A stretch of 64,000 bases of DNA, taken from positions 25,358,001 to 25,422,000 of the forward strand of contig CAIIXF020000001.1 in the NCBI GenBank assembly GCA_903813345.2. Reading direction: 5' to 3'. The notes under the pieces were generated by a model. It saw nothing but the letters and a program-made list of their open reading frames with translations, was not told the DNA's origin and did not search any database. This stretch comes from Owenia fusiformis. Its lineage: Eukaryota. Position 1 is the stretch's first letter. Every line of letters begins with the position of its first letter. Positions 19,501-37,500 of this stretch are shown here, one piece after another. The position numbers were made by a program, and so were the translations under genes.

Positions 19501-22500
19501 AGGAACATATATCGGTATGTTAATGTTAGGCCAAATATCGCTGCACTATAGTGTGTTACCAGTTCCTTTATTAGACGTCCTAGAGATTTCATACCATGGA
19601 CTACTGTATATAGACTGATATATCAAGTAGTGTCATTTATGCAAAGTCATAGCATGTGTAAGAGAAAAGTATCGTAATCAGTATGACCCTACAAAAAGTT
19701 CAATCAATGTTCATGTGTTAAGGAGGGGCATTATTCTGTATATATATTAATTGCAAGGTCAATACATTTCACCCTAATGGCAATACAATAACGCAAGGTA
19801 GATTTACCTGTCATCAAAATCAGTAAGGTGCCAATTACACGGGTAGTATCTAAAGCCCCGCCATGATTTAGAAATCGCGAGCAAGTTCCCGCTGAAATCA
19901 CGAGCAAAGTCCTTTTTATTTGTGTCACCTGGAAATATGGACAAAAAAGGTAAGAATACGCATTACTGTTCTTTGAAACTTGAGGTATACTTTCAGAACA
20001 GGTATATCTTCACAAACAATGACATGAACGATAAATATTTTTATCGGCATGGAAGAAACTGGCGCAAATATGCACGTTTACATAATTTACTGTAACAAAA
20101 TTACTTTTGTCGTTAAAATTGAGACAAGAACTACGATATGCATTCCTCATAATGAATATTGGATCAACATTGTATGTATTGATAAGTTAGTTTACAATAA
20201 CATCTCCTGTGGGGGGTGAAGTACACCATTGGAGGTGTTCCAGTGGCCCCGCTGAAATAATGAGGAAGCCCCGCTGAAAACATGAGGAGGTCCCGCTGAA
20301 ATCAGGAGCAGATTTCACGAGTACCCGCTTCGATCACGAGGAAAGCTTCATTACTATTCCATTAAATATTTAGGTTCTTCAAATAAACGTACACGAAAGA
20401 CCAAGTAAAGTATTTCTATTAATTATATATACTGTTTCATTCTTGGGCCACGTTTCAAATGTTTTTATTGCAACTTCAAGTCATCAGAGCAGAACGATTT
20501 CGTCAAACATTTTATACAATTTCACCCATCATTTGATTTCAAAATAAACGAACCAAAATATATAGGAGAAAGATGAATGTATCGTGTATTAGACTTCAAC
20601 ATAAATTCAAGACAACTTGATGGAAGCATGAAGTTCAGGGGAATGAGCCTTTTATTAAACAGAGACACCCCAAGTTGCAAGAATAATAGGAAATTTGCAG
20701 AGAAATGAGAACCACAAACCATGATAATTCAGAAGACGTTGTAGGTTCTACTTTTATAATTTAACAATAACATTTAACAATAACATTAAAGTTTTTGTTT
20801 TTTTAATATTTATTTCAATAATGATTTATACGCCATCTAAAAATAGGTTATTACAATACTTCAAAAAATGTGAGATGTCAGGAAGATTTCGATGGTCATT
20901 TGATGTTTCTCCAAGTTACTAATGTCGTATCTAAGTATTCCATACCTGGCTACTGAGGTTCTGTAGCATACCTGCCAACCTACCGTATTTTTACGGGAAT
21001 CTACCGTAAATTTTTCGTTTTTCCGTAAAAAAATGACAAACTACCGTAAAAAAATACCATTTTTTCCCGTAAAAACGCCCGTAAAAAAATCTACCGTATT
21101 TTTTCCGAAATCTTCCGTAAATTTTTTTTGAAAAAAATCGTTTTTTCCATTAGAACGGCCGTAAAATATACCGTAATTTTTTGAAAATTTACCGTAAATT
21201 TTTGAAAATCTACCGTATTTCTGCTAAAACCAACAGTATTTCTGTTCAAACTACCGTAAAAATCTCCCGTTATTGTTGGGAAATGCTGAAAAATTGAAGT
21301 CTCCCTGTACTGTCCCTGTAACATTCCTTTACCAACCCGAATATAAATAGGCATCGGCAGGTCTGTGGTTATATCAGGTTATTGCGCATTAATCTAAGTA
21401 AGCTGGGGTGTAATCAGTCCAAACACCAACTACCACTTGAAGGAATTAGTTCTGCCATGATTTCTGTAGTTAACCAAACCCTTTTGTACACAGATCAGAT
21501 CTCTATGGACCGAATGCAACAAAAATATGATTTTAGTTGCGCTTCATCTAAATAAATGAGTGGAAATGCTTAAAACTACTTGTTTTAGCGTATGAAATAT
21601 GCGTAGTTTGGTTTGTTATGATCAGTAATGAACGCCACATATACATTATACATAGTTTTATCAATTTGTTTTCAGTATAATAAAATGTTGTATTTTTCAT
21701 TTGATCACATCATATCAGTAACAAATACATAATTAAAAAATAAATCACCCCAGATATTGACAACTCACACTTAATCTGTTGAAATGATTATATGGGTTAA
21801 AAATGTTTCGTGGCGGTTCAAAAGTTCCACTTATAGAGCTAGAGGTGTTCCACTTAGCAGGTTCAATTGTAGTTATAAAAACACTGAAGTGTTCAAATTG
21901 TTGATCTGTTTATGAGAGAGTTCAATGGATCCTGCGTTAACATAATGTTTTATTAATTAGCTTTTAAGAAATCTACCGCAAAAACTACCGCATTTTTTCT
22001 AAATCTACCGCAAAACTACCGCATTTTTTCAAATTCTTCTGCAAAACTAGTTTTTAAAAAAATCTACCGCAAAAACTACCCCATTTTTTCAAAATCTACC
22101 GTAAAATACAGCATTTTTTGCAAATCTTAAGCAAAAGTACCGTTTTTTTTTAAAAATTACCGTAAAAACTACCGCATTTTTCAAAGTCTACCGTTAAACT
22201 ACCGCATTTTTTCAAAATCTTCCGCAAAATTACCGGTTTTTCAACAAACTACCGTAAAAACTACCGGATTTTTTCAAAATCTACCGTAAAACTACCGCAT
22301 TTTTTCAGAATTTTCCCCAAAACTACCGGTTTTTCAAAAAGCTACCGTAAAAACTACCGCATTTTAAAAATCTACGGTAAAACTACCGCATTTTTTCTAA
22401 ATCTTCCGCAAAACTACCGCTTTTTTCAAATTTCTACCGCAAAATTACACATTTTTCAAAAATCTACCCCAAACCTCTGAAACTTCAGTATTTTTTTCAA

Positions 22501-34500: not shown

Positions 34501-37500
34501 ATGAAAATAGTTCAGAGAAAAATGAATATCACAAATCAAGTTCTCATAGAAGTCAATGGTACAATAATATTCAAAACATATTCTCCCTTTCGACATTGCT
34601 TTATCTTTAGTTAAGCATATTCATGGTGATCCAGTCGATTACGCTGGTTACCGAAACGGTTCTTTTTGGTAACAAAATGTCGGAACGTCGAAGGTTCGAT
34701 TTTTCTTTTTTCCTTATGAATATGCTTAACTAAAGATTTCATGGCTACCTACAGTATGTTGAATTTTGATTCTAAACTGAGCTCCACATGTCTTGTGCTT
34801 CTTAATTTGCGCGTCTCATTGTATCTCACATAACATTTTTAGCTGGCTGAGCAAACCAGACAAGACAAGACAATCGGAAACATCGATCCATATGATGCTG
34901 AAATGCGACCTGTACTTCAACATCATGGAATTCCTCTCATCTTTTAAACACTTGGTTCCACATGACGCGCGAAATCATCAACTTAACATTAATTTTATTT
35001 TTACAGCAGTTCATGAAAATATACTTTATCTATTACAATTGAACATAATACAAATGATATAGCTGCATCTGCTAGTATTGTGTATTATATTATTGTATTG
35101 CCGAGTTTTTGCAATAACCCAGATGCGAGTAGAAATAATCTTGATTTACGTCATTAAAAATTCAAAATTCAGTCAAAGTAATATCCTATTTGAAATCTAC
35201 ATGTAAAATTACATCTAGAAATGTGGTTTTAAAAAGTGTTTATCAACTTTGAAAAATTAATTTTCTTTGAAACTGTGACTTCTAGCTCGGGGAGATTCCC
35301 CATAGACCCCATGCTATAAAATCACAAAAAATGAAATATGTTTTCTTTTAGTAGACAGATAATATTTTGCTTTAGTGGACATATTTTCATTAGTATAAGT
35401 ATCAGACGCATAAGGGTTATATGAAAATTGAGCCTCTTAAATTGATAATATTCAATTTTAAGGGAACTTTCTTATATACCTGCCATGTTAATTGACCCGA
35501 ATCAGCCATCTGGTGGTGAAACTGGTAACTACCTACTCGCATTTGGGTAATTGGATGCTGCTATTTCCAGATAAGGTCCCTGCTTCACATGAATAACATC
35601 CGTTCATTTTAGCTTAGGTCAGTCTAACAGCCACTTGGTCGCTGCACAATTTTGTCATCGGTCATCTTCATGAGAGGGGGTTGACATTAGGCCATCTGGC
35701 TCAGGGAATTATTGTATGGGAGTCATCACCTAAAGTCCGTAGTATTTTTGGTACTTTTTTTATGATGGCCTAAACATACGTATATGTGCCTCTTGCACTG
35801 GTGAAACTTATCATAATAACATAGTGACGCGAGACTTTCAAAGAATTGATAGTTGATGATGAAAGAGAGTCGTAAATAACAATGATATTACATAATATTA
35901 AAAGAGTCGCACATGTACATGTTTAGTTGTCACAATAATAACAATAACAATGATATATGATATACATGTGCTTTGCAGAGTATCAATAATTATTATATCT
36001 ATTACGTTGGCTACAATCGTGGCAGATTTGCAGAGTAAAATCGGGCTTCACTCCATTTTGGAGAGACACTTGCTCCTGATTTCAGCGGGACCTCCTCATG
36101 TTTTCAGCGGGGCCTCCTCATGTTTTCAGCGGGATCTTTAGTTTATTGCTCATGTTAGAAGCGGGGCCTTGAGGGATATGGTAAAATGGAAATATATAAA
36201 TTTTGGTGAAGCTTTAGGAAGTGAAACTCAGTATACCTTTATTTCATATCACTATGAACATTTCAACTGAAGGGCAACGACCTTCTTCAGCTATAAAATA
36301 TAGAAATATATAGATAAAGATTTAAGATGATACATTCTCTCTCCAATTATCAAATAACGAAATACAGAACATCAGATCGTGATGCTTGTTTTGCAGCAGT
36401 TGCTTTTAAGTATCACTCCCATGTAATTATTGAATAAAATTAAATGAAAACGCTTTGTACAACATACAATTTAAGTAAACAAAAGATACCCCTTCATTTC
36501 TTTTAATTGCTCGCGATTTCAGCGGGAACTTGCTCGCGATTTCTAAATCATGGCGGGGCTTCAGATACTACCCGTGAATTAGTTACAAGTTTCTTAGAAC
36601 ACTTCCAACTACTGTCTGAACCGATAAGCTGGCTAGCCTGCACGGCAAGCGCTCCTGGGCCACCGGTATCTTTACCTGGAATGAATAATGTAAACGTAAG
36701 TAATTTATTAAAATATCTAACTAGGTCGGTAAAATCATCGTTAAATATCCCAGATGGACCGGTTGTTAGCCCTATCGGCAAAAGTATTGTTATGTAACAT
36801 TATGTAATTTATAATAAAATTATGTCATCATATTATATAGCCAACAACAAACCTACTTAGTTGTGTTTCTCTTAACTTTTGCCTATCAAAGAGCGCAAGT
36901 ACCCAGAACACTACAGCTTCATAAATACAATAATTCAAATATGAGAGTTTCATTTTCAATCAATAGGCACTGATAAAAGTGTGACTTTTGGGTTTAAGTT
37001 CATATCATCATTCATTCATGCATTTTATACTGTGTACTATTCAATTAAATTCATTTTCAATTTATTCAAGTATACTCTTACAAAACATGAAAAATTGTAT
37101 TTAAGGTATAACAAAATAGAAAATCTGATGATTTCAGTATGATAAAATGTCCCTTGGTCCTATGGTCCTGAATTGTGATATTTGCTGTTGAGTTGAGGAG
37201 AAAGGAAGTAGTAGATATTATTTATTTTCAAGAGATCATGGTTTTGGAATAAGCGAGGGTATATTTTTCTTATGACAAGTTTACAGCTAGAGTCTTGGTA
37301 AATTAATAGAAATCACATAAATGTACTTACAAACGATTGCAATAACTTTCGTATAGCCTTCTAGAAGCTTCACATAAACACGCGTCCAATCCAATCCACT
37401 TCCTAAATCTGCCCCATCGGCGTAAAACCTGTGTTCGTCATCGCATACTAGGTATACATTCAAACCTTCCTCTGTATAAAAGATAGTTCACCCTTGTAAC

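Follow-up and report, generated by a model that had tools for sequence, protein, structure and literature searches.

Transposons that end in CAC…GTG and duplicate 5 bp of their target are described among the Transib and RAG-like groups (PMC1131882, PMC7204232). According to PMC1131882, the Transib end consensus consists of CACAATG, a 23-bp spacer and then AAAAAAATC, and Transib and RAG both favor GC-rich targets, AT-rich genomes included. For protostome RAG-like ends, PMC7204232 gives the consensus CACTWMCAAACKTYKBB, with AAA at positions 8–10. The wider CACTA/Mirage/Chapaev/Transib (CMCT) clade, as presented by Kojima (2025, PMC12730594), has CA…TG ends and duplications of 2–5 bp, with 3 bp in EnSpm-like families. 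Here, we describe a 16,739-bp element with CAC…GTG ends that splits an exon encoding part of a lectin-type domain in the annelid Owenia fusiformis. It lies in a stretch of 64,000 nucleotides (assembly GCA_903813345.2, contig CAIIXF020000001.1, positions 25,358,001 to 25,422,000 of the forward strand); this whole 64-kb stretch is referred to below as the window, and all positions are counted from its first letter.

Like the non-autonomous Transib elements (Transib-N) that PMC1131882 reports from insects and sea urchin, the element combines CAC…GTG ends and a 5-bp duplication with the lack of a transposase of its own. It differs from the Transib elements described there in that the heptamer is matched at CAC only, a nonamer-like match is not significant and the target is AT-rich. 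It also has 70-nt inverted repeats and subterminal arrays of a 22-bp unit, an annelid host, and a size of 16.7 kb as opposed to 3–4 kb for autonomous Transib (PMC1131882). Non-autonomous RAG-like elements (Martin et al. 2020, PMC7204232) share with it the CAC ends, the 5-bp duplications and a lophotrochozoan host. The RAG-like repeat pairs presented in that paper and the ends of this element are also alike in enclosing no RAG1-like or RAG2-like gene, but positions 8–10 read AGT here, whereas AAA is conserved in the RAG-like ends of PMC7204232. The CACTA/EnSpm, Chapaev and Mirage elements of the CMCT clade, as treated in PMC12730594, resemble the element in their CA…TG ends and large size, but have duplications of 2–4 bp, compared with 5 bp here, and CACTA rather than CACGG ends.

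The element and the interrupted exon

The element, its flanks and the exons around it are located as follows:

19838–36576, + strand: whole element, 16,739 bp, with CAC…GTG ends and without a recognizable transposase
19833–19837, no strand: left target-site duplication AATTA, directly outside the left end
36577–36581, no strand: right target-site duplication AATTA, directly outside the right end
19838–19907, + strand: left terminal inverted repeat, 70 nt, with one CCCGCTGAAAT at 19888
36507–36576, − strand: right terminal inverted repeat, 70 nt, identical to the left one at 68/70 positions, with one CCCGCTGAAAT at 36516–36526
20246–20302, + strand: left subterminal array ~410–465 nt from the tip, in which a 22-bp unit is repeated 2.6 times and CCCGCTGAAAW occurs three times
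36073–36134, − strand: right subterminal array, 2.8 copies of the 22-bp unit of the left array, of which it is the mirror image
37331–37471, − strand: exon upstream of the insertion in the split lectin-type domain, 98% identical to the end of the NCBI protein P0001
36582–36675, − strand: 5′ part of the split exon, 99 nt including the AATTA copy at 36577–36581, with an acceptor cag before 36675
19808–19832, − strand: remaining 25 nt of the split exon (3′ part), after which comes the donor GTAAAT
18774–18913, − strand: exon downstream of the insertion in the split domain, its first base being the third of a codon that opens with the final AG of the split exon

The two arms of the element are 97% complementary over 70 nt, with mismatches at positions 15 and 63 only. 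The termini read CACGGG…CCCGTG, the left end starting with CACGGGTAGTATCT, and the first 29 nt of the terminal repeat are present in the window as two exact copies, one per end; 0 matches are expected by chance, and two copies were reached in 0/100 shuffles. We scanned the window for inverted CAC…GTG pairs, which yielded 25, and tested their flanks for identity at lengths of 2–10 nt. With its ends set at CAC and GTG, the 16.7-kb element has identical flanks at 5 nt only. A 3-bp duplication (TTA) was considered and set aside as less parsimonious, as it needs two unpaired bases past the repeat on one side only; it predicts an identical empty site, so that the exon cannot decide between 3 and 5 bp.

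The motif CCCGCTGAAAW has eight matches in the window, all of them inside the element, four on the + strand at the left end and four on the − strand at the right end. At each end, one lies in the terminal repeat and three in the 22-bp array ~410–465 nt from the respective tip, in mirrored positions. Only 1.07 matches would be expected in the window, and eight were reached in 0/100 shuffles. Judging from the sequence pattern, these are probably transposase-binding sites.

When the element and one copy of AATTA are removed, the split exon is rejoined to 124 nt on the minus strand, in frame with its neighbors, and the join of 37331–37469, 36675–36577, 19832–19808 and 18913–18774 gives 134 codons free of stops. 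On dropping between 0 and 8 nt of the duplication, the downstream frame is kept at 2, 5 and 8 nt only and the conserved spacing of the domain at 5 nt only. With the element left in place, the reading frame enters the repeat for nine codons and then meets a TGA. A homologue search with the upstream exon against 1.84 billion representative proteins returned four, P0001 to P0004. P0001 is the deposited O. fusiformis protein of this locus, and P0003 was set aside, being a low-complexity repeat protein. P0002 and P0004, matched by the upstream exon at E values of 1.2e-5 and 4e-4, hold three and four copies of the domain, respectively. The rejoined domain aligns without gaps through the junction to 6/7 of these repeats, while the seventh has a 4-residue insertion ahead of the conserved W; excision restores the conserved W-x4-[FY]DD spacing of the lectin-type domain. 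Among solved structures, the ‘Lectin’ chains 6kbj, 6t0q and 6t1d are matched by P0004 at E ~1e-22 and by the upstream exon alone at E 0.003. In view of these matches, the name ‘lectin-domain exon’ is a fair one.

In our interpretation, a non-autonomous transposon with terminal inverted repeats entered a coding exon in one cut-and-paste event; we give this a probability of roughly 0.85, a figure from which the branch of transposons is excluded. Inverted-repeat ends, a target duplication and the absence of a recognizable transposase are general characteristics of a non-autonomous DNA transposon, and all are found here; a further one, the presence of several copies per genome, is indicated roughly by the contig depths given below. 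In the proposed mechanism, a transposase supplied in trans would have bound the terminal repeat together with the eight CCCGCTGAAAW sites, arranged symmetrically with four at each end; after cutting at the CAC ends, it would have inserted the element into a target opened by a 5-nt staggered cut. The enzyme would most likely belong to the CMCT clade and, within it, to the Transib/RAG-like branch. A first-pass annotation of this DNA had proposed one insertion splitting a lectin-type exon, by an element of 16,739 bp with 70-bp repeats flanked by AATTA. That size is what we measure between the ends, the arms and the AATTA on both sides are as listed above, and the rejoined exons give the peptide that the annotation had read in frame, while excision restores both the frame and the conserved domain.

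Interior of the element and its copies elsewhere

Inside the element, the following features can be distinguished:

20409–20573, + strand: open frame of 55 codons, its zinc-finger pattern C2H2-like and below Pfam cut-offs
21962–22650, + strand: 31-bp satellite, ~22 copies with a 93-bp higher-order unit, inside a 1.7-kb segment (20967–22658)
22698–26057, no strand: nested long-inverted-repeat element, 3.4 kb, with inverted arms of ~470–600 nt
26431–32605, no strand: nested 6.2-kb composite made up of several elements with inverted repeats
27788–28840, + strand: fragment holding an open frame of the long interspersed nuclear element (LINE) type, with zf-RVT at 31.1 bits (cut-off 27.5), within 26431–32605
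30342–30881, no strand: nested foldback, 540 bp, CACTGC…GCAGTG, with 254-nt arms that are 98% complementary

Open frames that reach 55 codons number 56 in the element; the longest is a LINE-type frame of 301 codons, and the others have 104 codons or less. No Pfam transposase was found in the 24 of these 56 frames that were scanned singly, nor in a six-frame read-through of 19838–28300, in which stops were read as X and which gave 0 families; the read-through scan is insensitive, as it missed a weak zinc-finger match that was seen with the isolated frame. Across the 24 frames and the read-through, the zf-RVT in the LINE-type frame is the only Pfam match above the curated cut-off, and no convergent RAG1-like and RAG2-like genes were seen between the repeats in the scanned frames; as a RAG-like transposon, the element could be no more than a non-autonomous derivative. 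For the zinc-finger frame at 20409–20573, no homologue was found, and no candidate had a word in common with it; the frame may be what is left of a gene of the element itself, or a product of chance. The description of the element as non-autonomous, already given by the first-pass annotation, agrees with the lack of a recognizable transposase in the frames and the stretch scanned.

Nested transposons make up 9,535 of the 16,739 bp (57%). Within the 3.4-kb nested element, an open frame at 25698–25979 (− strand) is similar, on visual inspection, to the tail of a Tc1/mariner transposase. The 540-bp foldback has a 5-bp duplication of its own, ATGCT, at 30337–30341 and 30882–30886. It shares the 10-nt word ATCATGGCGG, in opposite orientation, with the repeat of the large element, which may be due to chance. 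The LINE-type fragment at 27788–28840 is 94% identical to 3477–4366, in inverted orientation, and the same LINE-type end is also present in a 5-kb contig of sequencing run X4.

We compared the region 18600–37600 with contigs of four sequencing runs (X1, X2, X4 and X9). A short form of the 3.4-kb element without 23088–25522 was found in all four runs. Contigs join 20966 to 22659, 23087 to 25523 and 30342 to 30888, and the skipped segments in between are thus absent from other copies of these repeats. In run X1, word depth is ~1,030–1,110 over 20000–20683, compared with ~57 over 18647–19025 and over 33851–34044. This suggests that the 5′ part of the element has about twenty copies and that its interior is partly single-copy, a rough estimate, as word depth is not a copy number. 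Among the 15 of 746 contig joints listed, there is none from 19837 to 36582, and among the 24 of 6,327 loose contig ends listed there is none at the tips of the element, which speaks neither for nor against an allele with an empty site. In an exact scan of metagenome contigs, the 29 nt that open the repeat had 0 matches.

Origin, age and affinities

It is extremely unlikely that this structure is an artefact of the assembly, or that a pair of independent insertions together mimics a single element. The window is the sole view of the junctions, which are not among the 15 of 746 contig joints listed. However, the ends are mirror images of each other with identical 5-bp flanks, and excision rebuilds a conserved protein domain with exact spacing; two separate insertions would have left host sequence between them, and their removal would not rejoin the exon. 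A more serious alternative, which we place somewhat below even odds, accepts the insertion but makes it old: an element of ~7 kb or less would have entered the exon and then grown in place through nested insertions and satellite expansion. The 9,535 bp of nested elements with their own inverted repeats fit such growth, as do the contigs from other copies that skip 20967–22658, 23088–25522 and 30343–30887, and several of the nested repeat pairs are just 73–84% alike. Against an old insertion stand, on the other hand, a perfect duplication, outer repeats identical at 68/70 positions, and exon halves and neighboring exons that are still open and keep their conserved residues. Downstream of the insertion, the 11 exon pairs of two tandem gene copies, A (7162–17408) and B (49126–63512), have a proportion of synonymous differences (pS) of ~0.16 and a ratio of nonsynonymous to synonymous proportions (pN/pS) of ~0.41, and the copy A exons in these pairs contain no stops; the sums cover 11 of 32 rows picked as true frames and include some intron flank. 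The first-pass annotation had called the insertion recent and the element unusually large. The perfect duplication, the 68/70 match and the open exon halves fit a young insertion but give no date, and since the arms of an inverted repeat need not match at the time of insertion, their identity is no clock. As for size, 9,535 of the 16,739 bp are nested and other copies are without some of the segments, so that the element may have been smaller when it inserted and the description is not supported.

With regard to its affinities, the element has two characteristics of Transib, the 5-bp duplication and the 5′-CAC…GTG-3′ termini. The nested foldback, whose ends are unrelated, likewise combines CAC…GTG with a 5-bp duplication, which favors a Transib/RAG-like enzyme. 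Among the 25 CAC…GTG pairs in the window, the 16.7-kb element and the foldback were judged to be the only outermost ones, and with the base composition of the window identical 5-nt flanks have a chance probability of ~0.0015 per pair. That a single window of 64 kb contains two different elements with CAC ends and 5-bp duplications suggests a Transib/RAG-like enzyme in an annelid. We place the element and its enzyme in the CMCT clade with fair confidence. For the Transib/RAG-like branch within that clade the odds seem nearly balanced, and the family call is plausible as a reasonable lead from the sequence.

Several observations weigh against this interpretation. The duplication length of 5 bp is known from one insertion in this family and one in another. 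The Transib heptamer is matched at 3/7 positions, those of CAC only, and the nonamer-like TTAGAAATC scores 6/9 at a spacer of 23 and 3–4/9 at spacers of 22 and 24; by chance, 6/9 or better would be reached at one of these three spacers with a probability of ~0.08. By eye, agreement with the protostome RAG-like consensus is limited to CAC and some scattered positions. The 5-bp targets of the two elements are rich in AT, the 35-bp site of the element having 31% GC and AATTA 0% in a window of 34.6% GC. The transposase scans are insensitive in the read-through, and the eight frames at 28658–32204, in nested elements, were left out of them. Long repeats with subterminal arrays are, moreover, a combination seen more typically in elements of the CACTA, hAT or P types. 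The Transib assignment of the first-pass annotation is plausible rather than established: the CAC ends and the 5-bp duplication speak for it, and the heptamer, matched at 3/7, and the AT-rich target speak against it.

These same features lead to other families. Subterminal repeats are a hallmark of CACTA elements, and a member of the CACTA/EnSpm–Chapaev–Mirage branch, with a transposase of an unusual 5-nt stagger, would account for the CAC ends, for the arrays of a short motif mirrored at both ends, for the large size and for the AT-rich target. We nevertheless regard this branch as unlikely. Although the clade as a whole ranges from 2 to 5 bp in the account of PMC12730594, 5 bp is the upper end of that range and EnSpm-like families have 3 bp. 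Chapaev duplications measure 3–4 bp according to the first-pass annotation, and the other CAC element of the window likewise duplicates 5 bp. Subterminal repeats are often carried by hAT elements too, which counts in favor of an assignment to the hAT5 group, highly improbable as we judge it to be. The reference list of PMC12730594 cites a hAT5 group with 5-bp duplications, which dates the claim that such duplications are made by Transib alone. However, hAT 5′ ends always have G at the third base, as stated in the legend to Figure S7 of PMC1131882, and the base here is C. KolobokP was rejected, as it has long direct, not inverted, terminal repeats. Polinton/Maverick elements, which are similar in size, were rejected as well, having a 6-bp duplication, polymerase and integrase genes of their own and other ends. 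That the element derives from something else again, or from an undescribed type, appears rather unlikely.

Should the Transib/RAG-like placement hold, O. fusiformis would have, or would recently have had, a transposase of this or a sister lineage, cutting AT-rich targets with a 5-nt stagger and mobilizing at least two unrelated non-autonomous families, one represented by the 16.7-kb element with its 70-nt repeats and the other by the 540-bp foldback. We put this forward as a tentative and, on balance, doubtful proposal. If true, it would extend to Annelida the lineage ancestral to V(D)J recombination and RAG1, with a target preference and an end architecture unlike those of canonical Transib. 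In the searchable literature, supplements aside, no Transib/RAG-like transposon is described from annelids; searches on RAG1L and Annelida gave none, and those on Transib with annelid or Capitella gave a note on a leech transcript only. The word ‘annelid’ is absent from the main text of PMC7204232. The disruption of a gene by a transposon of this sort is ordinary, and Transib-like activity in annelids is a side lead.

The host gene and its surroundings

The host gene encodes a multi-domain extracellular protein with PAN, EGF, lectin-type jelly roll, EGF array, TSP1 and LDLa domains. Its deposited model P0001, a 276-aa NCBI ‘unnamed protein product, partial’ from Owenia fusiformis, covers the PAN and EGF domains and ends within the exon directly upstream of the insertion. 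Because the deposited protein ends at the insertion, the gene looks like a fragment. The expectation of the earlier annotation that gene models would suffer here is borne out by this partial model, which stops just short of the element, and the locus is a clean case of a gene model broken in two by a transposon. The O. fusiformis genome paper reports an assembly of 505.8 Mb with 43% repeats, largely DNA transposons, and the removal of gene models that overlapped repeats. With 43% repeats in the genome, it is nothing out of the ordinary for one exon of a duplicated gene to hold a transposon.

For the lectin-type domain itself, Pfam gave 0 families on the single exons, and P0004 has weak matches to PA14 and rhamnosidase-N only. 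A homologue search with the downstream exon among proteins of up to 2000 aa found none. By their other domains, galactose-oxidase-like domains and bacterial TSP3 repeats, P0002 and P0004 look bacterial. At least one of the related lectin chains is apparently from a mushroom, Pleurotus ostreatus, the code 6KBJ appearing in a paper on a lectin of that species. Among the proteins found, there were no animal relatives of the split domain beyond the model of the locus itself, and the distribution of this jelly-roll domain may be patchy.

In the intron adjoining the split exon lies a 520-bp inverted-repeat element (19036–19555) with ends starting CACACTATAG, for which no identical flanks were found at lengths of 2–10 nt. 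Rfam and tRNA scans of the whole window showed no RNA genes. The 3′ two-thirds of the host gene are present as tandem copies at 6067–17408 and 46759–63512, with nucleotide blocks that are 80–95% identical and with EGF array, F5/8-like, TSP1 and LDLa exons, the domains being named by eye; the counterpart of the split exon in copy B falls beyond the window. EGF exons together with their introns are also duplicated in tandem within 11300–13600 and 54400–60700, as illustrated by 11300–12050 and 11868–12628, which are 90.6% identical. From these sequence similarities, the EGF array appears to be still expanding or being homogenized.

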